NCBI GenBank assembly: GCA_017463365.1
Contig: JAFTPH010000026.1
Span: forward strand, 620 to 64,619
Length of the DNA: 64,000 nt
Reading direction: 5' to 3'
From: Bacilli bacterium
GTDB lineage: Bacteria; Bacillota_I; Bacilli_A; ML615J-28; CAG-313
Part shown: positions 8,093 to 60,807 of the stretch, in pieces
Position numbering within the stretch: the stretch's first letter is position 1
Layout: each line of letters begins with the position of its first letter
Position numbers and translations under genes: made by a program
Notes under the pieces: generated by a model
The model's input: the letters and a program-made list of their open reading frames with translations, nothing else
What the model was told of the DNA's origin: nothing
Database searches by the model: none

Positions 8093-9568
8093 ATGAATAA
8101 AAAAACAGAACACCATAGTGGAATATTAATGCCAATTAGTTCTTTGCCTTCAAAATATGGGATTGGTAATTTTGGTAAAGATGCTTATAAGTTTGCTGAT
8201 TTTTTAGCAAAAACAAAACAAAAATATTGGCAAGTTTTACCACTAAATCCTACATCATATGGTGATAGCCCATATCAGTCTCCAGCTTCAGCTTCAGGAA
8301 ACCCATATTTTATCGATCCTGAAGTATTATATGAAGATGGTCTATTAACCAAAGAAGATTTAAAAGAGGCTATTAATAAAAATAAGCGTGTTGATTACGG
8401 ATGGCTATTTAATACTAGATATGATTTATTAAGAAAAGCTTTTTCAAGATTTAATCCAAATGATGATTATTTTGTATTCTGTAAAAATAATCAAGAATGG
8501 CTTGATGATTATGCTTTATTTATGAGCTTAAAAGTTCAACATGGTTATGCGGAATGGACAAGTTGGGAAAACGATTATCAAGATTACGAAAAAGCTAAGG
8601 AATTAAAAGAAAATTTTGAAGAAGAAATGAAGTATTGGCGTTTTATCCAATATGAATTTCATAAACAATGGGATAAATTACACCAATATGTTAAGAATTT
8701 AGGAATCAAAATTATTGGTGATATGCCAATTTATGTTGCACATGATAGTATGGATGTTTGGTGTAGTCCAGAAGATTTCTTGTTGGATGAAAAACATCAA
8801 CCTACACTTGTGGCTGGATGTCCTCCTGATGGTTTTTCACCTGATGGACAGTTATGGGGTAATCCAATTTATAATTGGGATAAAATGGAAAAAGATGGTT
8901 TTACATGGTGGAAAAAACGTATCAAAGAAAGCTTTAAACTTTATGATGTTTTAAGAATTGACCACTTTAGAGGATTTGCGGGATACTACGCAATTCCATT
9001 TGGTCATGAAACAGCAAGATTTGGTAGTTGGTATCATGCTCCAGGAATTGAATTATTTGATACTATTAAAAAGCATTTTCCAAAAGCAGAAATTATCGCT
9101 GAAGACTTAGGATTCATAACTGAAGATGTTAGAGAATTACTAGCTAAAACTGGTTTCCCTGGTATGAAAATTCTTCAATTTGCTTTCTATGATGATGATG
9201 CAGAATTCTTACCAAGAATGTTTAAAGATGAAAATTGTATTGTGTATACTGGTTCTCATGACTCTGACTGTACTAAAACTTGGTATCAAAATTTAAATGG
9301 CGATGCTAAGAAACGTTTCAAGAAAGAATGTCCAAAAAGAAAAAATCAAACTGGAACAGAAGCATTAATCGAATTTGCTTTAAACAGTAAAGCTTTTTTA
9401 GCAATCATTCCAATCCAAGATTATTTAGAATTAACTAATGATTTAGGTCGTATGAATACTCCAGCAGTTGCCTCAGGTAACTGGACATGGAGATTAAGTT
9501 CAAGATATGCGACTGATCGATTAATAAATAAAATTAGTAAACTTACTATTGACTCAAAACGTATATAA
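8093..9568 (+). CDS. malQ: 4-alpha-glucanotransferase (amylomaltase, GH77)
   Basis: N-terminus ...SGILMPISSLPSKYGIGNFGKDAYKFADFLAKTKQKYWQVLPLNPT is the canonical MalQ start. RBS AGGGAG before the ATG at 8093. The ORF track begins at an upstream TTG (8051). Confidence 0.9.
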   Translation: MNKKTEHHSGILMPISSLPSKYGIGNFGKDAYKFADFLAKTKQKYWQVLPLNPTSYGDSPYQSPASASGNPYFIDPEVLYEDGLLTKEDLKEAINKNKRVDYGWLFNTRYDLLRKAFSRFNPNDDYFVFCKNNQEWLDDYALFMSLKVQHGYAEWTSWENDYQDYEKAKELKENFEEEMKYWRFIQYEFHKQWDKLHQYVKNLGIKIIGDMPIYVAHDSMDVWCSPEDFLLDEKHQPTLVAGCPPDGFSPDGQLWGNPIYNWDKMEKDGFTWWKKRIKESFKLYDVLRIDHFRGFAGYYAIPFGHETARFGSWYHAPGIELFDTIKKHFPKAEIIAEDLGFITEDVRELLAKTGFPGMKILQFAFYDDDAEFLPRMFKDENCIVYTGSHDSDCTKTWYQNLNGDAKKRFKKECPKRKNQTGTEALIEFALNSKAFLAIIPIQDYLELTNDLGRMNTPAVASGNWTWRLSSRYATDRLINKISKLTIDSKRI

Positions 9569-34034: not shown

Positions 34035-34162
34035 TATTAAATAGTAAAATTTATAAATAGTATATAGTTCAAACGTCATTGCCGTAGACAGTAGGTGTTG
34101 TCTATGACAACTTAATTTCCTACCGAGGAAGAAATCCGAAAAATTTTCAGGAGGTGAAAACA
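34035..34162 (+). promoter_or_regulatory. rplJ-rplL 5' leader (candidate L10-leader autoregulatory RNA structure)
   Basis: 128-nt intergenic segment with an imperfect long hairpin (GTCATTGCCGTAGACAG...TGTTGTCTATGAC) directly upstream of the rplJ RBS. Position is equivalent to the L10(L12)4-binding leader of Bacillus. Confidence 0.45.
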
Positions 34163-50743: not shown

Positions 50744-51307
50744 ATGGATAAAAGTCAAATTATTAATAACGTATCTAAATTATTAAATGAAAATAGGTTT
50801 GAAGAAGCTAAGATGCTTATTCAAAGTGAGTATCCTCATGAACATATAGAAATTGAAAAACGATCATATACTCTTAAACAGAAAATGACTCAATTTCTTA
50901 AAGATGGTTTCATAGATAGATATACTGGACAAAGACTTGTTAATCCAGGAATGTTAAAAGTTATAACTTACTATTGTCCAAAAGAATTTCCATATGATCC
51001 TCATTGGAAAATGACCAAAACTCATATTGCTTACTGGAATTTGATACCTACTATTGATCATATTTTTCCAATTGCATTAGGAGGTATTGATGATTCTAGT
51101 AATTGGGTTACTACATCAATGAAAAATAATTCTATAAAAAATAATTATTCATTAGAGGAAATAAACTGGCATTTACACGAAAGTGGAAATTTGGATGATT
51201 GGGATGGATTAACAAAGTTATTTATTGAGATAGTTGAAAAGAATAATGATTTACTAAAAGATTCATATATAAAAAGCTGGTATAAAATTTCTAAAGATTT
51301 GATTTAA
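50744..51307 (+). CDS. HNH-endonuclease-family protein
   Basis: IDHIFPIALGGIDDSSNWVTTSMKNNSIKNN resembles the HNH core (H-N...N). Confidence 0.55.
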   Translation: MDKSQIINNVSKLLNENRFEEAKMLIQSEYPHEHIEIEKRSYTLKQKMTQFLKDGFIDRYTGQRLVNPGMLKVITYYCPKEFPYDPHWKMTKTHIAYWNLIPTIDHIFPIALGGIDDSSNWVTTSMKNNSIKNNYSLEEINWHLHESGNLDDWDGLTKLFIEIVEKNNDLLKDSYIKSWYKISKDLI

Positions 51308-51476: not shown

Positions 51477-52574
51477 ATGAATTTAGGTTTAAGAATTAAA
51501 GAATTACGTATTGAACATGATTTAACTCAAGAAGATTTAGCCGAACAACTAGGAGTATCAATTCAAGCCATATCTAGATGGGAAAATAGTATTACATGTC
51601 CGGATATTTCCGTTTTACCAATACTAGCTAATATGTTTGATGTGACTGTTGATTATTTATTAGATGTAGATATTAAGAAAAAACAACAAGAAATCAATGA
51701 AATAGAGGCTAAATATAATAAGAATTGTAATGTTGGAAAAGTAGAAGATAATGAAAAATTATTGTTAGAAGGGTTAAGTAAATATCCTAATAATTGGGTA
51801 TTAAAATCATCTTTATTAGACACTTATTTTACTTATGTTTGTAGATATGAAAGAGATGATCCAAAATATCAAGAATATATAGACAAAACAATTAAATTAG
51901 GTAATGAAATATTAAATAAATGTGTTTTAGATAATAAAAGATATTTTGCTATGCAAATACTGGTATATACTTACAGATGGACTAATGAATTAGAAAAAGC
52001 CAAAGAAATTGTCAAAAAATTACCAAGTTTTTATGTAACTAATGATTGGTTATATCCAGAAGTTGTTACTGGGTTTGAAAGAATCAAAGCTGTTGAAAGA
52101 AATATAAATTCCATAGTAGAATTATTTTATAGTGCTTTAACATCAACATATGGAAGAAGAGAAGTAGGACTTAGAGCCAAAGAACTTTTAAAATTTAAAA
52201 CATTCTTAGATTTAGTATATGAAGATGGCGACTATGGATTTTATCACATAAGACTATTTGATTTATATTTTATGTGTGCTAGTGATCAAGCTCAAATAAA
52301 AAATAAAGATGAAACGCTAAAGTATTTAAATTTAGCTATTTATTATGGAGAAATTTTTGATAAAATAAAAGATGAAGGTAAAGTTATTAAACATACAAGT
52401 TTTTTAGTAGATTGTTTAGAAAACAATCCGAATAGTTGGACATTCTCAGGTGATTGTGTTGCTTTAAAAAGAGCAGTTGATTATTTAGAAAAGGATAAAT
52501 ATGATTTCTTGAGAGAAGATGAAGAGTTTAAAAAAATTAAAGAAGAGTTAATTAATAAATTGACAAATAAATAG
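51477..52574 (+). CDS. XRE-family HTH transcriptional regulator with C-terminal helical-repeat (TPR/RNPP- or Rgg-like) domain
   Basis: HTH MNLGLRIKELRIEHDLTQEDLAEQLGVSIQAISRWENS. ~300-aa C-terminal alpha-helical region. RBS AAGGAG. The 3' end is embedded in repeat copy 1. Confidence 0.8.
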   Translation: MNLGLRIKELRIEHDLTQEDLAEQLGVSIQAISRWENSITCPDISVLPILANMFDVTVDYLLDVDIKKKQQEINEIEAKYNKNCNVGKVEDNEKLLLEGLSKYPNNWVLKSSLLDTYFTYVCRYERDDPKYQEYIDKTIKLGNEILNKCVLDNKRYFAMQILVYTYRWTNELEKAKEIVKKLPSFYVTNDWLYPEVVTGFERIKAVERNINSIVELFYSALTSTYGRREVGLRAKELLKFKTFLDLVYEDGDYGFYHIRLFDLYFMCASDQAQIKNKDETLKYLNLAIYYGEIFDKIKDEGKVIKHTSFLVDCLENNPNSWTFSGDCVALKRAVDYLEKDKYDFLREDEEFKKIKEELINKLTNK

Positions 52575-52658
52575 AGATATTTTACACTAACTAAAGTATT
52601 GCTTGAGTTCATTCAAAAACCTCTTTATTGTTTTTGAAAGATAAGAATTATATAAATT
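52548..52658 (+). repeat. 111-bp direct repeat, copy 1 (regulator 3' end + promoter-like element + 9-bp inverted repeat)
   Basis: ~97% identical to 58759-58869 (4 mismatches in 111 bp). Contains TTGACA-17-TACACT and TTCAAAAAC-n9-GTTTTTGAA. Confidence 0.9.
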
Positions 52659-52725
52659 TTTTTAGATGAATAAAGTTTGTAAAATAATACTTAACTAATA
52701 AGTTCAAAATAAATAAACGAAATAC

Positions 52726-52754
52726 TTTACATTTATTATTTATTTTGATATAAT
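52726..52754 (+). promoter_or_regulatory. Near-consensus sigma-A promoter for the small peptide gene
   Basis: TTTACA (52726-31), 17-nt spacer, TATAAT (52749-54). GAAAGGAG RBS then ATG at 52798. Confidence 0.65.
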
Positions 52755-52797
52755 GACTTTAGCAAATATAAAAATTACTTGAAAGGAGTTGATTACT

Positions 52798-52863
52798 ATG
52801 AAAAATATAAATGAACATAAATTAGAAGTAATCAGTTTCTTTTGTGTAACTGTAGTTTGTTAA
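52798..52863 (+). CDS. Small peptide ORF (21 aa, MKNINEHKLEVISFFCVTVVC), a candidate signalling-peptide or RiPP-like precursor
   Basis: ATG 7 nt after GAAAGGAG. Consensus promoter upstream. Polar N-terminus and hydrophobic Cys-containing C-terminus ending in Cys. Hairpin with U-tract downstream (52896-52930). Located directly 3' of an RNPP/Rgg-like regulator and 5' of exporter genes. Not in the supplied ORF track because it is under 60 aa. Confidence 0.5.
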   Translation: MKNINEHKLEVISFFCVTVVC

Positions 52864-52895
52864 GTTTTATTAATTATAATATACTTTTAAAATTT

Positions 52896-52930
52896 AAACA
52901 CTTCTAATTTATAGGAGTGTTTTTTATTTG
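52896..52930 (+). terminator. Hairpin with U-tract between the peptide ORF and downstream genes (possible partial terminator/attenuator)
   Basis: AAACACT-tctaatttatagg-AGTGTTT followed by TTTTATTT. Confidence 0.5.
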
Positions 52931-52960
52931 CTAAATATTTAATTAGGAGATTAAAAGTAT

Positions 52961-54541
52961 ATGAATTTATTAAAAAATTATTTAGCTAAATTACATGCTC
53001 AAAATAAAAATAGAATTGATGAACTATATTTAGACAGGTTAAGTAAAATAGATGATTACAAAATATTAGAATATGAATTTTTAGGATTGAAATTTTGGTT
53101 TTTTGGAACATCTCATAGAAATCCTGAAAAACTTATTTTAAATATTGAAATTCCTAAAACATATATTAGTGATAATCTAAATACTGATAATGTAGTAGCA
53201 TTTGAACATTACGTTTTAAAAATTTTATATGAAGACGTTAATAAAATTAATGATGAATATTTTAACAAAAATAAGAGTACTAGAGAAAAGCCATATGTGG
53301 AGTCCCAAAAAACAAATGAAATTATAATTAAAAGAAATGGTATTACTTACGATTTTAAAAAGAAGGTATTTCATTATAAATTAATATTTGTTGTTCCACT
53401 TATAAATAATACTTCTATTAATGGTAAAAGTACTTTTAAGGCAATCAAAGAAATTATTTCTTTAGTATCAAAAAAATTAGAGTTTATTAACAAAGATGAA
53501 TTAAATAAAAATGTTGATATTTACTTAAAGCAACAAGAAATTAGAAGATACATTAGGGAAAATAATTTAGTTACGTTTATTGCTAATGATAGTATTTTAC
53601 CAAGAAAAGAAGGAACTAATAAACCATTAGAAGATGCAACTAAATTTATATCACCTAAGTCACTTGAAACATTAATCAAGTTAAATGATGGTACAAAGAT
53701 TTTAGGAATGGGAATTAAAAAAGGAATAACTGTTATTACTGGTGGTGGTTATTCGGGTAAAACTACTTTACTTGAAGCAATTGAAACGGGTGTATATGAT
53801 CATGAGTATGGGGATGGAAGAGAATATTGTATTACTGATGATTCTGCCATGAAGATTTGCGCTGAAGATGGTAGATATGTCACAAATACTGATATTTCAC
53901 CATTTTATAAGTATATTCCATCAAGTGAAGGGATTCATAACTTTTCAACGCAAGATGCAAGTGGAAGTATTTCACAAGCAGTAAATATTATAGAAGCAAT
54001 TAATTGTGAAAGTAAGTTACTTTTAATTGATGAAGATAGAAGTGCAACTAATTTTATGATAAGAGATTATAATATGCATTTAGTTGTGAAAAATGATCCA
54101 ATAATACCATTTACTAATAGGATTAAAGAAATCTATAATGATTATGACGCGTCAACGATATTAGTAATAGGTGGTTCAAGTGTATATTTGAATTATGCTG
54201 ATTGTGTAATTTTGTTAGAAGATTATTTGCCTAAAGATATAACTGGTTTTATTAAAGGATTAGATTTGATGAAAGTTGTAGAGGAGCCAGATAAGACAAA
54301 TTTTATATCAAAAAGAAAAATAGCTAATTTTAAATCAAAAGAAATGTTTAACTATTTTAATTTTGTTGCAAATGATAAAAGTAAAAATATTGTGATTGAT
54401 GAATATCAAGCTGATATCACGTTTATATCAACATTAATTTCAGATAGTCAAATAAACTATTTAGCTTATATAATGCAGTTAATACTATCTAGAAGTGAAT
54501 TTTGGGGTGATGATATTATTTATAGCATTATGTATAAATAA
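52961..54541 (+). CDS. Stand-alone 'ABC-class ATPase' protein (PF09818-like P-loop NTPase of unknown function)
   Basis: 526 aa, no TM. Walker A in the C-terminal half (GGGYSGKTTLLEAIETG) and Walker B-like LLLIDEDRSATNF. Long N-terminal non-ATPase region. RBS TTAGGAG. Confidence 0.6.
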   Translation: MNLLKNYLAKLHAQNKNRIDELYLDRLSKIDDYKILEYEFLGLKFWFFGTSHRNPEKLILNIEIPKTYISDNLNTDNVVAFEHYVLKILYEDVNKINDEYFNKNKSTREKPYVESQKTNEIIIKRNGITYDFKKKVFHYKLIFVVPLINNTSINGKSTFKAIKEIISLVSKKLEFINKDELNKNVDIYLKQQEIRRYIRENNLVTFIANDSILPRKEGTNKPLEDATKFISPKSLETLIKLNDGTKILGMGIKKGITVITGGGYSGKTTLLEAIETGVYDHEYGDGREYCITDDSAMKICAEDGRYVTNTDISPFYKYIPSSEGIHNFSTQDASGSISQAVNIIEAINCESKLLLIDEDRSATNFMIRDYNMHLVVKNDPIIPFTNRIKEIYNDYDASTILVIGGSSVYLNYADCVILLEDYLPKDITGFIKGLDLMKVVEEPDKTNFISKRKIANFKSKEMFNYFNFVANDKSKNIVIDEYQADITFISTLISDSQINYLAYIMQLILSRSEFWGDDIIYSIMYK

Positions 54542-54701
54542 TATTAAAATTTTAGATGAATCAATACAACAAATTATTTCACAGTATAATTTTAAGTGTG
54601 ATGTATGGTTTGACGATATACGTAAACAAGATATCATAAGTTGTATAAATAGATTAAGAGGAATTCGTTTTGAATTTATAAGTTAAAGGAGAGTGATACT
54701 G

Positions 54702-56495
54702 ATGAATTTAGATAAACCAAATATTATAAAAAACTTCTTTTACTCACTAAAGAAGATTTATAAAATTGATAAAATATTTGTTTTTGAGACTATAATACAT
54801 ACAATAATTTCTGCATTAGTTGTTTTTATGTATCCATATATATTAAAGATGGCAATAGAAGCTATTGAACAAAATTTAAGTTTTAAAGAATTAATACTAA
54901 AAGTACTTATTGTTGTAGTAAGTGTAATGATTTTAGTTTTCTTTAATCAGGCATGTTGGAGAGATCAATCTTATAGAGCGCGAAAATTATCTGCGCTATT
55001 TACAAGAGAATATCATTTAAACTCATTAAAAACTGATTATGAGAAATTTGAACAACCAGAATCACAAGATGCTTTTGAAAAAGGATCACGAGCACTAGGA
55101 ACAAGAAGTGGATTTATAGGTTTATATACAAATATGTTTACAACTATTAGTAAAGTAATTACCTTTATAATTGGTTGTGGAATAATACTAAGAGTAAGTA
55201 TTTGGTTGATAGTAATAATTGTTTTATTAGCAATTATAAAATTATTATTAACAAGTTATAATACTAAAAAAGAAAAAACAAACTTTCATGATAAAACACC
55301 TGGTATATGGAGAAAAATTAGTTATACAAATAATATATCAAAAAATTTGACAATAGGAAAAGATTTACGTATTTATGAAATGGATAAGTTTATAGATATG
55401 GAAAGACAAAAAACTATTGATGAATATATGAAACTTTATAAAAAAGAAGAAATTAGATCTAATATATTAGGCACAATAATTAATTTAATACATATATTAG
55501 ATGAAGTTGCATTATATTCATTTATGCTTTATGAAGTAATTAACAATAATATGAGTATTGCTGATTTTACTTTTATTATTGCATCAATTAGAACATTATC
55601 AAGATCGTTGACAGTTATAATAAATAATTTTAGCAATAACTTATCATATAGTTTACAGGTTAATGATTATCGAAAATTTGAAACATTAGATTTATCATTT
55701 AATGGTGATACTAAACCTCTTGTAGCAGATGAGGTAGAAATTGAATTTAAAAATGTAAGCTATAGCTACTATATGCAAGAAGGATATACACTAAAGAATA
55801 TCTCGTTTAAAATTAAGAAAGGCGAACGAATAGCACTTGTTGGTCATAATGGTGCAGGGAAAACAACTCTAATAAAACTTATTTGTGGATTTTATCATCC
55901 AACTGAAGGAGAAATCCTTATTAATGGAGTAAATATAAATGAGATAGATAGAGAAAGCTTAATAAAACTAATTGCTCCTGTTTTCCAAGATTCTAATCAT
56001 TATGCGGTCAGCATAAAAGAAAACATTGCTATGGAGACAATTGGGAATATAGATGATGAAAAATTATATATGTCACTTAATCTCGCTGGCTTATTACAAA
56101 AAATAGAAAGTTTAAAAAATGGTGTTGATACAATTATAACTCGTGATATGGATGATACAGGTGTTGAATTATCAGGTGGAGAGAGTCAAAAATTATCGAT
56201 TGCAAGAGCTATTTACAAGAATGCTCCATTTGTAATTTTAGATGAACCAACTAGTGCACTTGATCCTATAGCAGAATCTGAATTGTATATGAATTTGAAT
56301 AAAATTATTAATAATCATTCAGCTATATTTATTTCTCATAGACTTTCATCAACAAAATTTTGTGACAGAATATTCTTCTTAGAAAAAGGAGAATTGCTTG
56401 AAGTAGGCACACATAATGAATTAATGAGTATAGATAGTGAATATAAGAAACTATTTAATATGCAAGCAGAATATTATAAGGAGGTAGATGAATAA
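54702..56495 (+). CDS. ABC transporter permease/ATP-binding protein (half-transporter, exporter type), subunit 1
   Basis: N-terminal 6-TM domain. Walker A GHNGAGKTT, signature LSGGESQK, Walker B ILDEPTSALD, H-loop FISHRL. Confidence 0.85.
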   Translation: MNLDKPNIIKNFFYSLKKIYKIDKIFVFETIIHTIISALVVFMYPYILKMAIEAIEQNLSFKELILKVLIVVVSVMILVFFNQACWRDQSYRARKLSALFTREYHLNSLKTDYEKFEQPESQDAFEKGSRALGTRSGFIGLYTNMFTTISKVITFIIGCGIILRVSIWLIVIIVLLAIIKLLLTSYNTKKEKTNFHDKTPGIWRKISYTNNISKNLTIGKDLRIYEMDKFIDMERQKTIDEYMKLYKKEEIRSNILGTIINLIHILDEVALYSFMLYEVINNNMSIADFTFIIASIRTLSRSLTVIINNFSNNLSYSLQVNDYRKFETLDLSFNGDTKPLVADEVEIEFKNVSYSYYMQEGYTLKNISFKIKKGERIALVGHNGAGKTTLIKLICGFYHPTEGEILINGVNINEIDRESLIKLIAPVFQDSNHYAVSIKENIAMETIGNIDDEKLYMSLNLAGLLQKIESLKNGVDTIITRDMDDTGVELSGGESQKLSIARAIYKNAPFVILDEPTSALDPIAESELYMNLNKIINNHSAIFISHRLSSTKFCDRIFFLEKGELLEVGTHNELMSIDSEYKKLFNMQAEYYKEVDE

Positions 56496-58267
56496 TGAAA
56501 CTAAAAACAATTAAGAGAAATCTAAAATATTTTATTCCTTTACTTCTAAAGATTAGTCCAATGTCAATTATTATAATGGTATTAGTGGCATTTATAAATT
56601 CAATTAGTAATATAGCCTGGGTCGTGTTTCCAAAGTTGATATTAGATGAACTTTTTTATACAAAAAATTATGATAAATTATTCATTATTGTTATTGCATT
56701 TATTTTAATTCAATTAATATGGAGAGTATTAGGCGATATATTTAATAGTATGAATTATTATATTATACGAAAAGCAGATTTTAAAATAGATAAATTATTT
56801 AACGAAAAGATTGCTCATATTGATTACTTTCATATAGAAGATCCACAATTTAATGATGAATTAAGTTATGCGAAAAATTGTTTAAGCCAATATAGTAATG
56901 GGATTTATTCGGTAACTTGGGCAATTAAAGAATTTGTTGAAAATATAATATCAATATTAAGTGTTGTTGGAATAATTATAGCAAGTGGAGAATTCTTTAT
57001 TATACTTGTAACATTGATAGGTGTGATATTAAATACAATCTTTTATGGAAAATTTCAAAAAATAGACGAAGAGTTTAATAATGGAACAGTTCGATTTTTT
57101 AGAAAACAATGGTATTATGGCAATAGTATGATGGCATTTAGAAGTCAAAAGAATTTGAGGATGTATAGTGCAGATAATTTGATAAAAAACAGAAGTGATG
57201 AAGTAAATAATGATCTATTTAAAATAGAAGAAGAAACAAACAAAAAAAGAAATAAAGTAAGTTTATTTGAAACTAGTTTTAGCTATTTATTTACTACTTT
57301 TATAACAATAATAATTCTTGCATTTGCGGTATATTATAAAAATTTAGAATTAACTGTTTTTACAATGCTATATGGTGCAGTTCAAACACTAGATAATGGA
57401 ATTGCAAATTTAATATATTCATCAAAAAAATATTATCAAGATTGTGTTTATCAAGAAAACTTTATTAATTTAATGGAAATTGAATCTATATTTAAAGATG
57501 GTAAAAAAGCTATAGAAAATATAGAAACAATTGAATTTAAGAATGTTAGTTTCAAGTATCCAAGATGTGATTATTATGTACTCAAAAACTTAAGTTTCAA
57601 AATTGATTCTAAAGAAAAAATATCATTAGTAGGTTTAAATGGTAGTGGTAAAACAACGATAATCAAATTGATTTGTAGATTCTTTGATGTTAATGAAGGA
57701 GAAATATTAATCAATGGAGAAAACATAAAGTTATATAAATATGAAGACTATATGAAATGTTTAGCCATTGTATTTCAAGATTTTAAAATTATATCATTTA
57801 GTGTTAAAAACAATATTGCAATACTTGATGAAAATAAAGAAAAACTATATGATGTTTTAAAAAGAAGTGAAGCATTAGAAAGAATAAATGAATTACCTGA
57901 TAAAGAAAATACTTATATTAATAAATGGTTTGATAAAAAAGGTGTTGAATTCTCTGGTGGAGAACTTCAAAAATTTGCTTTGGCTAGAGCATTATATAAA
58001 GATGCAGATTTTGTTGTTTTAGATGAGCCAACAAGTGCGTTAGACCCTGTGAGTGAGTCAAAAATCTATTATCATTTCAAAGATGTTGTGGGAGAAAAAT
58101 TGACATTATTTATTTCACATAGGCTATCAAGTTGTATATTTAGTGATAAAATACTAGTACTTGATGGATATAATATTGTTGAAACTGGAACTCATGAAGA
58201 ACTTATGAAAAATAAAGAAGGCTTGTATAGAAAAATGTTTATGGCTCAAGCAGAATATTATAATTAG
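56495..58267 (+). CDS. ABC transporter permease/ATP-binding protein (half-transporter), subunit 2
   Basis: Start overlaps the previous stop (ATGA). Strong RBS AAGGAGG. Walker A GLNGSGKTT, signature FSGGELQK, Walker B VLDEPTSALD. Confidence 0.85.
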   Translation: MKLKTIKRNLKYFIPLLLKISPMSIIIMVLVAFINSISNIAWVVFPKLILDELFYTKNYDKLFIIVIAFILIQLIWRVLGDIFNSMNYYIIRKADFKIDKLFNEKIAHIDYFHIEDPQFNDELSYAKNCLSQYSNGIYSVTWAIKEFVENIISILSVVGIIIASGEFFIILVTLIGVILNTIFYGKFQKIDEEFNNGTVRFFRKQWYYGNSMMAFRSQKNLRMYSADNLIKNRSDEVNNDLFKIEEETNKKRNKVSLFETSFSYLFTTFITIIILAFAVYYKNLELTVFTMLYGAVQTLDNGIANLIYSSKKYYQDCVYQENFINLMEIESIFKDGKKAIENIETIEFKNVSFKYPRCDYYVLKNLSFKIDSKEKISLVGLNGSGKTTIIKLICRFFDVNEGEILINGENIKLYKYEDYMKCLAIVFQDFKIISFSVKNNIAILDENKEKLYDVLKRSEALERINELPDKENTYINKWFDKKGVEFSGGELQKFALARALYKDADFVVLDEPTSALDPVSESKIYYHFKDVVGEKLTLFISHRLSSCIFSDKILVLDGYNIVETGTHEELMKNKEGLYRKMFMAQAEYYN

Positions 58268-58498
58268 TTAACTATAAATTTTTGTGCTATACTATTAAAG
58301 TAAAAATGATATTAGGAGGTGCATTTATATAATTTATAGAACGTTAATTGTGTTAGTTATGATATTATTTATGATACCTCTTGTAGAGGGTAATCGAGAT
58401 AAAGAAGATATAATAGATTTTTAAATAATATAAAAAAAGGTAAGATTATTAAATATCAAAATATGTAATTAATATAAATAGTATTAAAATTTATAAAA

Positions 58499-58540
58499 TT
58501 AAGAAATGTAACTATCTTAACTGGTAGTTACATTTCTTAA
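58499..58540. repeat. Perfect 16-bp inverted repeat with 10-bp spacer in a 640-bp non-coding region
   Basis: TTAAGAAATGTAACTA-tcttaactgg-TAGTTACATTTCTTAA. Confidence 0.8.
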
Positions 58541-58758
58541 TTCTCTATTAATCTTAAAATAACTGGAAGTAAAAATGTAATGATAATTAAGATTTATAAT
58601 ATATTTCTTAATTATTAACTAATTTTATATCATTTTTAGGAGTAAAATAAAAAATAGGTATATTTAAAAATCATTAAAATAGGTGTAAATCTTTAAATTA
58701 AGAGAAAAATTATCTTGTTTATAGTATTATAAGTGTTTTCTATTACATACAAACAATA

Positions 58759-58869
58759 TTAATTAATAAATTGACAAATAAATAGAGATATTTTATACTA
58801 ACTAAAGTAGTGCTTGAGTTCATTCAAAAACCTCTTTATTGTTTTTGAAAGATAAGTATTATATAATTT
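58759..58869 (+). repeat. 111-bp direct repeat, copy 2 (carries a pseudo-3'-end ...ILINKLTNK* of a regulator gene)
   Basis: ~97% identical to 52548-52658. Contains TTGACA-17-TATACT (better -10 than copy 1) and the same 9-bp inverted repeat. Lies ~40 bp upstream of the ATG at 58911. Confidence 0.9.
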
Positions 58870-58910: not shown

Positions 58911-59645
58911 ATGGCTTTTAACGAACAAATACAAAAACTAAGAAAAGAATGTGGAATGACTCAAAATGAACTTGCTGAAAAACTATTTATTAGTTATCAA
59001 GCAGTAAGTCAATGGGAAAATGGTAATACAAAACCTGATATTGACTTATTACCAAAACTTGCTGAAATATTTAATGTATCAATTGATGAATTATTTGGTA
59101 GAAAAACTGTTAAATGTAATTTAACTAATGTAGAAGAAAATACTTTATATTTTGTTATTGCAACCTCAGATGAAATTATGGGAATAATGGATTTAGAAGA
59201 ATTAAAGAAAAAGCAAAATGAAGTAAAAGTTACTATTGAAGGAGATACTTTAAATGTTGTAAGTTCATCTACTGTAACTATAAAAGGTAATGTTCAAGGT
59301 AATGTTGATGCCAATCAAGATGTTAATACTTCAGCTATTGGTGGTAATGTTAGAGCAGGTTGTGATATTAATTGTGCTAATATTACAGGGAATGCTAGCG
59401 CAGGTTGTGATATTTCTTGTGCGAATATTAGTGGAAACGTTGCTGCTGGATGCGAACTTAATTGTTCGGATATTAGAGGAAATGTTTCAGTAGGTGGGAA
59501 TCTAACTTGTGAAAAAATTGAGGCTGATACTGTTAAAGCTGGCGGTATAATTTATTGTAATAAAGAAATAAAAGCTAATAAAATAGAAACTAATAATACA
59601 GTAGAGAGTAAAAATAAAACAAGTAAAATTACTATTGAAATGTAA
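58911..59645 (+). CDS. XRE-family HTH protein fused to a C-terminal Cys-rich 15-residue-repeat (beta-helix/bactofilin-DUF4097-like) domain
   Basis: HTH LRKECGMTQNELAEKLFISYQAVSQWENG. C-terminal tandem repeats GNVRAGCDINCANIT / GNASAGCDISCANIS / GNVAAGCELNCSDIR / GNVSVGGNLTCEKIE. RBS TAAGGAG. Confidence 0.75.
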   Translation: MAFNEQIQKLRKECGMTQNELAEKLFISYQAVSQWENGNTKPDIDLLPKLAEIFNVSIDELFGRKTVKCNLTNVEENTLYFVIATSDEIMGIMDLEELKKKQNEVKVTIEGDTLNVVSSSTVTIKGNVQGNVDANQDVNTSAIGGNVRAGCDINCANITGNASAGCDISCANISGNVAAGCELNCSDIRGNVSVGGNLTCEKIEADTVKAGGIIYCNKEIKANKIETNNTVESKNKTSKITIEM

Positions 59646-59749: not shown

Positions 59750-60079
59750 ATGTTCAATTTTTTATTAATAGATCCACAAACAATGGCTATATTTGCAGAA
59801 ACATTTGAAATAATTATGATATTATGTTTTGGTTTCTCATGGCCAATTTCAATTATTAAAACTTTAAAAGCCAAAACAGCGGCAGGTAAGAGTCCATTAT
59901 TTATTATTTTAATTATTACTGGGTACATCTTTGGTATCGCAAGTAAAATTATATCTGATAATATTGGTATTGCTTTTATTTTTTATTGTATTAATTTATG
60001 TACAACATCTTTTGATTTAGCATTACAATTATATTATCGTAAGAAAGATGCATTAAAAAACAAGGGGAATAATATATGA
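59750..60079 (+). CDS. Small 3-TM membrane protein, PQ-loop/SemiSWEET- or LAB_N-like (MtN3 clan)
   Basis: 109 aa with three hydrophobic helices. The ...FSWPISIIKTLKAKTAAGKS... segment resembles the PQ-loop signature. Stop overlaps the downstream start (ATGA). Confidence 0.45.
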   Translation: MFNFLLIDPQTMAIFAETFEIIMILCFGFSWPISIIKTLKAKTAAGKSPLFIILIITGYIFGIASKIISDNIGIAFIFYCINLCTTSFDLALQLYYRKKDALKNKGNNI

Positions 60080-60807
60080 AGAGTTTTGAGAAGGGAAACA
60101 TTAGGATTAAACTTGCTGAAACGAAAGAAGAATACGAAGGACTATATCGTTTAAGATATTTTGATTTATTATTAAATTACAATATCAATAATCAAAATGA
60201 TGAACAACTTGATACAGATGCATATGATAAAGTTTGTGATCATCTTATCGCAGTAGATACTAATACAAATGAAGTAGTGGGAACATATAGGATTATAAAA
60301 AAGAGCCATTTATTAGGTGAAATGCCATTTCTAACAGAAAGTGAATTTGATCTAACACCTTTAAAAAAATATGAACTAATGGAATTGGGTCGTGCGGTGG
60401 TTAAAGAAGAATATCGTGATGGTTCTGTTATTGGATTACTTTGGAGTGGCATAATTAGATACGCGATTGAAGAAAATATGGAATATATGGTTGGTACTGC
60501 TTCATTCCATGGAACAGATTATCGTGAATTTGAAGATGTATTTAGTTATTTATATCACAATAATTTATCACCAACGGAGATTAGATGTAATGTAAATCAA
60601 GATTCAGCCATTGATATGCAGATATTAAATGATTATCAAGAAGAAGTTGCTAAAAAAAATATGCCCCCTCTTATTAAAGGTTATTTGCGTTTAGGTGCAA
60701 CAATTGGTAATGGAATTTATATTGATAGAGACTTTAATAGCTTAGATGTTTTAATTGTTTTGAAAATAAGTGAAATTAATCCTAGATATTTAAAACGATA
60801 TTTATAA
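60076..60807 (+). CDS. GNAT-family N-acyltransferase of the OlsB / N-acyl amino acid synthase (Acetyltransf_5) type
   Basis: Characteristic ...PPLIKGYLRLGA... motif plus Y-R-I-I-K and G-R-A-V-V segments typical of OlsB/NAS/hemolysin-like N-acyltransferases. 243 aa. Confidence 0.7.
   Translation: MKSFEKGNIRIKLAETKEEYEGLYRLRYFDLLLNYNINNQNDEQLDTDAYDKVCDHLIAVDTNTNEVVGTYRIIKKSHLLGEMPFLTESEFDLTPLKKYELMELGRAVVKEEYRDGSVIGLLWSGIIRYAIEENMEYMVGTASFHGTDYREFEDVFSYLYHNNLSPTEIRCNVNQDSAIDMQILNDYQEEVAKKNMPPLIKGYLRLGATIGNGIYIDRDFNSLDVLIVLKISEINPRYLKRYL

Follow-up and report, generated by a model that had tools for sequence, protein, structure and literature searches.

The stretch analysed here, referred to as the window, comprises 64,000 nt of contig JAFTPH010000026.1 from the metagenome-assembled genome of an uncultured gut Bacilli bacterium, and the system in question is a ~6.2-kb cassette enclosed by two 111-nt direct repeats between two genes for XRE-type regulators. 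The cargo of this cassette is one operon, consisting of a promoter, a leader RNA, a gene for an ATPase of the PF09818 family (frameshifted here) and a pair of half-ABC exporter genes. We compared it with related loci and contigs (numbered L001–L090; L090 is an independent contig from the Joint Genome Institute, JGI), for which 80 PF09818 loci were taken from GTDB species representatives. We favour, at a probability of roughly three in four, the reading that a translation-sensing transcription attenuator controls the ATPase–exporter operon, and that this operon sits in a hotspot between the two XRE regulator genes. The four-gene content given in the initial annotation of this DNA stands as far as the small open reading frame (ORF), the PF09818 ATPase and the two overlapping exporters are concerned, but the 526-aa ATPase described there proved to be a frameshift-truncated product.

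Transcription of the operon is predicted to start from a sigma-70-type promoter on the plus strand (52726–52754; TTTACA-17-TATAAT, 11/12 consensus matches, extended −10 TG), which is conserved in L003, L011 and L010 and bears out the earlier claim that the small ORF has a promoter of its own. Downstream of it lies a three-helix leader RNA (52778–52930, plus strand), the single match in the window to a covariance model of this element (62.7 bits, E 2e-10); the leaders are about 150–170 nt long. The small ORF, previously described as a Cys peptide, is an upstream ORF (uORF) of 21 codons within this leader (52798–52863, plus strand; MKNINEHKLEVISFFCVTVVC), with a Shine–Dalgarno (SD) sequence, GGAG, 9 nt upstream. 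The first helix, P1, pairs 52781–52797 with 52827–52843, that is, the uORF's SD, spacer and AUG with uORF codons 10–16, and buries the uORF's own initiation region. An intrinsic terminator (52896–52922 plus a T-run) stands between the uORF and the ATPase gene, 32 nt past the uORF stop. The third helix is an antiterminator of 12 bp between UAAAUUAGAAGU (52818–52829) and ACUUCUAAUUUA (52900–52911); its first strand is inside the uORF, immediately 5′ of the P1 3′ arm, and its partner is made up of the 5′ arm and loop of the terminator. Because of this shared strand, terminator and antiterminator are mutually exclusive. In the window, the terminator has a stability of −10.7 to −11.2 kcal/mol versus −12.1 kcal/mol for the antiterminator, and P1 plus terminator is the minimum-free-energy fold (−36.4 kcal/mol, versus −30.6 kcal/mol when the antiterminator is enforced).

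Assignment of the leader to a known RNA family was considered and rejected. Rfam 15 gave no leader match at gathering scores in the window and 10 leader-bearing loci and chance-level matches (E 1 to 3) at permissive thresholds, and the searches at both thresholds, over the window and 11 loci, yielded nothing to suggest such a family. The sole Rfam family in the window is a ribosomal protein L10 leader (RF00557, 48.3 bits) at 34064–34158 on the plus strand.

The covariance model was built from P1 and the terminator only, with the antiterminator pairs left out, and was run at a threshold of E<0.05 on the window and 85 loci (1.29 Mb). This search revealed 51 matches among the 86 sequences, all of them on the coding strand and directly upstream of PF09818 genes, in Bacilli, Lachnospiraceae, Ruminococcus, Oscillospiraceae, other Clostridia, Paenibacillus and Bacillaceae. 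The layout recurs from locus to locus: a promoter, a strong SD, an ORF of 13–26 codons, an intrinsic terminator and, after 25–360 nt, the ATPase gene. At most of these leader-bearing loci, neither an ABC exporter nor a regulator of the window type is found nearby. The co-occurrence of such ATPases with short ORFs and exporter pairs was put forward as a check in the initial annotation; a short ORF accompanies PF09818 in 51 of the 86 sequences, mostly without exporters. Among the carriers of the leader are the cultivable species Paenibacillus ginsengarvi KCTC 13059 (L033), P. athensensis (L056), Gottfriedia acidiceleris DSM 18954 (L034) and Clostridium punense DSM 28650 (L027).

Initiation signals accompany the leader throughout. 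About 22 model matches fall in loci outside the seed, and all of these carry, at the modelled start, an SD followed by an ATG or GTG that opens an ORF of 13–26 codons; the stronger ones among them keep 6–7 of the 7 antiterminator pairs, which the model did not include. The GGAGG and the AUG hardly vary, even at unpaired positions, and are correctly spaced; the frame is open through both regulatory strands in every match. The antiterminator core begins 17–40 nt (median 22) past the first base of the AUG. With flanking pairs included, the strand can start ~1 nt earlier, and in the window the pairing begins 20 nt past the A.

Analysis of base pairing revealed covariation in all three helices. RNAfold predicted the P1 hairpin in 29/29 leaders, in which the spacer sequence varies by locus and the partner strand co-varies with it. 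In most Clostridia the antiterminator is formed by UCGGAUGU and ACAUCCGA; in L013 the antiterminator sequences are swapped, and in Paenibacillus yet another sequence is used. Covariation was counted on a MAFFT alignment (A4) that had not been fitted to any structure, with 500 shuffles as control. For P1 plus antiterminator, 79.7% of the cells were paired, compared with 32–47% when the strands were slid, and 13/18 pairs had changed on both sides; for P1 plus terminator, the corresponding values were 81.6%, 33–46% and 17/22, and none of the 500 shuffles reached either result. The antiterminator alone was paired in 81% of cells, with 6/7 pairs compensatory, and the terminator alone in 93%, with 9/9 pairs compensatory. 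What is thus observed at these loci is the leader architecture, the covariation in it and the fact that the leader accompanies PF09818 genes exclusively. In L029 and L036, the linker between uORF and terminator contains a copy-like SD-spacer-AUG stretch (GAUGAGUAAUAUGAAA) that could pair with the P1 3′ arm; if it does, some leaders could have an additional alternative helix.

The anatomy of the leader suggests how the switch might operate. When the start region carries no ribosome, P1 and the terminator would form and transcription would stop short of the ATPase gene. If a ribosome were held at the SD/AUG or on the first codons, P1 would stay open and the antiterminator strand, beyond the ribosome's footprint, would be free to capture the terminator 5′ arm; the operon would then be transcribed. 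A normally elongating ribosome, on the other hand, would cover the antiterminator strand and then depart, after which P1 and the terminator would form. Expression of the operon would therefore signal that early translation is arrested, and the logic would be that of the trp-type leaders and of known antibiotic-inducible ones. Ribosome-dependent transcription attenuators of antibiotic-response genes are documented as a class (PMC6851288, PMC10314930).

Several observations weigh against this reading. The regulatory logic is drawn from the leader anatomy, and ~35 of the 86 loci (e.g. those of halophilic Bacillaceae) have a PF09818 gene without the leader. The initial scan for leaders required an ORF, and the model matches in non-seed loci alone escape that bias. 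The ATPase gene is frameshifted in the window, so the cassette may be decaying here, and the two ends of the insertion described below differ in kind, the left junction resembling a 'fused' empty allele and the right junction keeping spacers of the type found in L008. Finally, P1 and the antiterminator overlap by merely 2–3 nt, and their possible coexistence as a pseudoknot would invert the logic: the untranslated leader, folded into an H-type pseudoknot of P1 and antiterminator, could then be the ON state, with translation through the antiterminator strand turning the operon OFF. Under either logic, the state of early translation would be read out by expression of the ATPase and, here, of the exporters as well.

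A leader that reads out uORF translation would be the first regulatory clue to when PF09818 ATPases are needed, and it gives this widespread and uncharacterised ATPase family a testable regulatory context. A further-reaching proposal, which we offer tentatively and would expect to fail more often than hold, is that the leader represents an undescribed, widespread class of translation-sensing attenuators dedicated to PF09818. The ATPases might then be induced by arrest of initiation or early elongation (e.g. by peptidyl-transferase-centre antibiotics) and work on ribosomes or mRNA, as a new factor in stress or resistance, with multidrug-type ABC exporters having been recruited under the same switch in several lineages.

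The second part of the reading concerns the site of the operon. The left repeat (52548–52658, 111 nt) comprises the last 27 nt of the upstream regulator gene (…ELINKLTNK*), a promoter-like TTGACA-17-TACACT site and a 9-bp hairpin, and the right repeat (58759–58869, 111 nt) contains TTGACA-17-TATACT at 58771–58799 together with the identical regulator 3′ codons as an orphan fragment. The copies agree at 107/111 positions (96%; 4 differences), so that both the bracketing repeats and their relation to the regulator 3′ end, as initially annotated, were borne out. The 98-nt core of the repeat occurs exactly twice in the window, where 0 occurrences are expected (100 shuffles), and a 35-nt core had one match in JGI metagenomes, a single copy; the 111-nt repeat is therefore not dispersed, and a dispersed repeat or miniature inverted-repeat transposable element was rejected on these counts. 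At the 4 positions that differ between the copies, L006 and L008 have the base of the right copy, which argues that the right copy is ancestral and the left copy diverged or was imported. Both repeats carry a sigma-70-like site, and the right copy is therefore read as the upstream region of the next gene, a second XRE gene with a repetitive C-terminal domain (58911–59645, plus strand; 'beta-helix' is an earlier label for this domain). L007 and L008, too, have regulator 3′ sequence of the orphan type in front of the beta-helix gene. The right repeat is the native upstream or promoter region of this gene, present in all alleles.

Comparison of alleles revealed that the slot between the two XRE genes is occupied differently from strain to strain. 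L006 and L090 are empty sites, in which, past the regulator stop, there is one 111-nt copy and directly after it the XRE/beta-helix gene (90–92% identity to the window protein). In L008, the slot is filled by a Fic gene on the minus strand (8146–9189; PADLOC SoFic, E 7e-42), bracketed by short similar 17-nt repeats (ATTAATAAATAAATT), and the regulator there ends in a similar sequence of its own (…LINKLVNQ). In L007, the sequence that in the window lies just left of the right repeat begins within 7 nt of the regulator stop. Between exporter 2 and the right repeat, the window has a non-coding right junction of ~490 nt (58268–58758), which, like the terminator and the repeat-borne promoter, had been overlooked in the earlier feature map; 58423–58498 and 58619–58758 within it are homologous to the spacers around the L008 Fic gene, and a hairpin with 23-bp arms is found at 58492–58547. 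The check for cassette-free relatives that the initial annotation proposed thus gave two independent empty sites (L006 and L090) and an allele with other cargo (L008), and the ~6.2-kb block accordingly reads as an insertion that varies between strains, in a recombination hotspot flanked by two regulator genes of the XRE family. This is in line with the earlier suggestion of an insertion at the regulator 3′ end. The 111-nt repeats appear to mark the insertion junctions, and recombination between the copies would yield exactly the empty allele of L006 and L090.

How the block entered is less clear-cut. Its exact flanking by direct repeats, the restoration of the target gene's 3′ end by the left copy, the single repeat copy in the empty sites, and the presence of other cargo in the same slot, with similar 17-nt repeats around the L008 Fic insert, would all suit a decayed integrative element resembling a cis-mobilizable element, whose attL and attR are the two repeats and whose recombinase is supplied in trans. 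We consider this improbable. A domain search of the cassette and of 10 kb on either side found no recombinase, integrase or transposase, the repeat, at 111 nt, is long for an att core and corresponds to the promoter region of the next gene in every allele, and the leader–ATPase–exporter module occurs in unrelated contexts without these repeats (L003/L011 and L010). The insertion looks like cargo exchange at the hotspot, possibly via the 111-nt repeats, and the recombinase that would define an integrative element was not found. Several recombination histories for the 111-nt duplication were tried on paper, and no single one uniquely explains both junctions. An island targeted to a tRNA gene was rejected, as tRNA genes are absent from the window and the related loci. 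Terminal inverted repeats of the cassette were also considered; a 9-nt match found by eye (TTAACTAAT, at 52693 and 58264) was judged to be a chance match in 20%-GC DNA.

Returning to the leader, a mechanism other than ribosome sensing would be a riboswitch or protein-binding RNA. In this reading, a small molecule or a protein, possibly the ATPase, stabilises a pseudoknot of P1 and antiterminator, and the uORF is translated only incidentally. P1 and the antiterminator lie next to each other and hardly overlap, as is typical of an H-type pseudoknot, the conservation is at the RNA level, and MRB1590, the sole characterised relative of the ATPase, binds RNA (PMC4538832). However, the P1 loop varies in length and sequence and has no conserved junction or bulge of the kind typical of aptamers, which makes such a mechanism less likely, and neither the near-invariance of unpaired GGAGG and AUG at the correct initiation spacing nor the frame that stays open through both regulatory strands in every match, non-seed loci included, would be expected of it. 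We regard it as unlikely, a little more so than the integrative element, and retain the translation-sensing attenuator.

The weakest alternative is the one proposed in the initial annotation, a quorum-sensing (RNPP/Rgg) or bacteriocin/RiPP (ribosomally synthesized and post-translationally modified peptide) locus, with the regulator as sensor of the Cys peptide, the ABC pair as its exporter and the ATPase as its maturation enzyme. In its favour, the flanking regulator (51477–52574, plus strand; 365 aa) has a helix-turn-helix (HTH) domain (Pfam HTH_3, E 5e-17) and a putative tetratricopeptide repeat (TPR)-like C-terminal domain, and the uORF, with a charged N-terminus, a hydrophobic C-terminus and its own promoter, lies beside it and upstream of the exporters. 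A Pfam search gave no TPR match in the regulator, but its family profile matches PlcR (2qfc) over residues 2–177 (E 1.5e-6) and designed TPR proteins over 72–184, and the label XRE/TPR is therefore fair. A reading of the peptide as a pheromone of the short hydrophobic peptide (SHP) type was tempting in view of an E/D before the hydrophobic tail and a conservative-looking E-to-D change in L003, and was rejected when the tail proved not to be conserved in L009, L010 and distant leaders and the 'motif' to be the antiterminator strand.

Inheritance and conservation both speak against such a system. L006, L007, L008 and L090 have the regulator and lack the small ORF, and orthologues of 87–88% identity occur without the cassette; the ORF in turn travels with PF09818 genes in unrelated genomes that lack a regulator of the window type and mostly lack exporters. 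The XRE/TPR regulator therefore appears to be a bystander to the cassette, with no linked cognate peptide. The C-terminal halves of the uORF peptides differ (SFFCVTVVC in the window, GFFHVTVFC in L010 and NSYIIKHF in L009), and neither Cys is conserved. The uORF codons that are conserved, K-L-E-V-I-S-F-F, correspond to the antiterminator strand and the P1 3′ arm, and the CGGAU motif of the antiterminator falls in reading frames 0, 1 and 2 in 7, 7 and 6 leaders, respectively. Conservation of the leader lies at the RNA level. The near-invariance of GGAGG and AUG, together with the open frame, speaks for translation of the ORF as a sensor and against a role of the peptide as a product.

Searches of the proteins agree with the part of the initial annotation that listed what is absent. 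The uORF peptide has no GG/GA motif; Pfam and NCBIfam found no modification or immunity families in the cluster, in which the sole other gene is that of the PF09818 ATPase; no peptidase C39 domain was found in the exporters, for which Pfam reports ABC_tran and ABC_membrane only; and the exporter alignments to peptidase-containing NCBIfam models begin past the peptidase region. Nothing points to the ATPase as a peptide maturation enzyme. Since the defining features were tested and not found, the locus does not appear to be an RRNPP or bacteriocin system, a reading to which we now attach hardly any weight. Its dismissal removes a false lead, no new pheromone or bacteriocin system being present, and illustrates that RNA pairing can mimic 'peptide conservation'.

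The bmrCD, vmlR and ermK genes are controlled by ribosome-dependent attenuators of antibiotic-response genes. By analogy with these, the locus would be a leader-peptide transcription attenuator in kind, with bmrB–bmrCD, vmlR, yxjB and the msrD leader as its closest functional analogues. As in bmrB–bmrCD, vmlR, yxjB, MsrDL and ermK, a promoter-proximal uORF with a strong SD is followed by an intrinsic terminator before the structural genes; as in the antibiotic-response attenuators generally, an alternative antiterminator overlaps the uORF; and as in bmrCD, the genes under putative control include a heterodimeric ABC exporter pair. The leader differs from the antibiotic-response attenuators in having no sequence similarity to them and no Rfam match. 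Here, moreover, segment 1 is the ribosome-binding site of the uORF, the uORF's SD and AUG being sequestered in P1 by its own codons, the antiterminator strand lies inside the P1 loop, at least 17 nt past the AUG, and the first controlled gene is that of a PF09818 ATPase, the element being dedicated to that family.

In the trp, his, leu and pheA leaders, a four-segment logic of 1:2, 2:3 and 3:4 pairing is read by the position of the ribosome. The present leader shares this four-segment logic on a short leader ORF, whereas it has no runs of regulatory codons, its peptide is not conserved, its segment 1 is the ribosome-binding site and the downstream genes are not biosynthetic. The likeness to PlcR–PapR and Rgg–SHP consists of an HTH and putatively TPR-like regulator beside a short ORF with a hydrophobic C-terminus; in contrast to those systems, regulator and ORF are not co-inherited here, the ORF belongs to the ATPase leader, and a conserved mature peptide was not found. 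The exporters resemble BmrCD, LmrCD, PatAB and EfrCD in that two adjacent, translationally overlapping genes encode half-transporters, each with a transmembrane domain and a nucleotide-binding domain (TMD-NBD). Whereas BmrCD, LmrCD, PatAB and EfrCD typically have one degenerate site, both nucleotide-binding sites here look canonical.

The PF09818 'ABC-class' ATPase gene (52961–54686, plus strand) matches Pfam ABC_ATPase with 333.7 bits (cut-off 23.2; E 9e-100). Comparison with L003, L011, L010 and L009 revealed that it is interrupted by a 1-nt insertion, an extra T at 54539 (within 54533–54542); the first ORF (52961–54541) encodes 526 aa, and the C-terminal 48 codons continue in the +1 frame to 54686, while the homologues have 570–576 aa. 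An identical truncated product occurs in two independent assemblies. The frameshift could be genuine and inactivate the gene, or it could conceivably be a site of +1 recoding at AAA-UAA-U; from the sequence, a plain 1-nt insertion would be the simpler reading compared with a programmed +1 frameshift.

The family has >7,000 homologous proteins (clusters at 90% identity). The core of the window protein matches PDB 5D6A ('Predicted ATPase of the ABC class'; E 2e-66) and MRB1590 (4YIX; E 2e-62), and its central P-loop domain aligns with MRB1590/KRBP72 (4YIX, 4YIY, 4YJ1) and 5D6A over ~270 residues (E 1e-62 to 1e-66), the motifs NG(S/A)ILPR, GGGxxGK(S/T)T and LL(I/L)DED being common to all three. 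Its N- and C-terminal domains, in contrast, have no match at the sequence level, and MRB1590 is a mitochondrial RNA-editing accessory factor. The Trypanosoma brucei protein MRB1590 is an RNA-binding ATPase of ABC fold that belongs to the kinetoplastid RNA (kRNA) editing machinery (PMC4538832, PMC11754742). A search of the accessible literature found no functional study of bacterial PF09818 proteins or of their leader. An anti-phage defence system was considered as well and rejected: PADLOC gave no match for the ATPase and generic NBD matches for the exporters, and a SoFic-like match was confined to the Fic gene of L008.

In around half of the loci, no further gene of the same orientation follows the ATPase gene within 350 nt. 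Two to three tandem PF09818 paralogues (36–43% identity to the window ATPase) stand behind one leader in L010 (6285–9725), L024, L025, L028 and L049. Such tandem paralogues suggest hetero-oligomers; MRB1590 is a dimer. In eight Bacillaceae loci (L055, L060, L061, L068, L071, L074, L083 and L088), queG (epoxyqueuosine reductase) directly follows a PF09818 gene without a leader, and at single loci the downstream gene encodes TrmO, a YbaK-type tRNA-editing domain or a MiaB/RimO-like enzyme. Such neighbours hint, weakly, at a connection with translation or tRNA.

The two exporter genes follow the ATPase gene on the plus strand. Half-transporter 1 (TMD-NBD; 54702–56495) has 597 aa from the ATG at 54702, a start that agrees with the gene call in L001 (the listed ORF runs from a GTG at 54693), and matches Pfam ABC_tran with E 3e-34; half-transporter 2 (56495–58267) has 590 aa, and its start overlaps the stop of the first. 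Their best NCBIfam matches are MsbA-like, generic and well below the family cut-offs. As read from the translations, the Walker B Asp-Glu and the H-loop His are retained in both subunits.

Comparison between loci showed that the parts of the cassette combine differently. L003, L004 and L011 share 52693–54706, that is, the leader and the ATPase gene, at 91% DNA identity in a different genomic context, and then run into a different exporter pair with ~31% protein identity. L010 pairs the window-type leader with the window-type exporters (84% and 90% identity) and has a second PF09818 paralogue between the leader and the ATPase orthologue, and L009 has the leader and an ATPase of 68% identity and no exporters. 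The cassette is thus modular. Exporter pairs occur in independent lineages, namely the window and L010, L003 and L011 (with the different pair), L064, L086/87, L089 and, less closely, L041; they follow the ATPase more commonly than expected from chance adjacency, yet they are not the rule. Downstream of the alternative exporter pair, the L003/L011 context has ORFs of 184, 203, 292 and 297 aa without a Pfam match (L003 5727–6281 and beyond).

The surroundings of the regulator vary as well. An HNH-like gene upstream of it (50744–51307) is absent from L008 and replaced by two other ORFs in L007, and 59750–60807, which encodes a 109-aa membrane protein and an OlsB-like N-acyltransferase, is absent from L006 and L090. 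The XRE regulator thus appears to sit in a small hypervariable island whose slots hold the HNH-like gene, the SoFic-like gene or this cassette, and the comparison documents such an island in a gut Bacilli species. The XRE/beta-helix protein has 244 aa (Pfam HTH_3, E 1e-17), and the HTH-coding stretches of the two flanking XRE genes (51563–51661 and 58997–59095) share 72% DNA identity, the genes being paralogous. Three direct repeats with 45-nt spacing and 77–81% identity lie at 59368–59483 in the XRE/beta-helix gene and encode the C(A/S)NI(T/S)GN units of its C-terminal domain.

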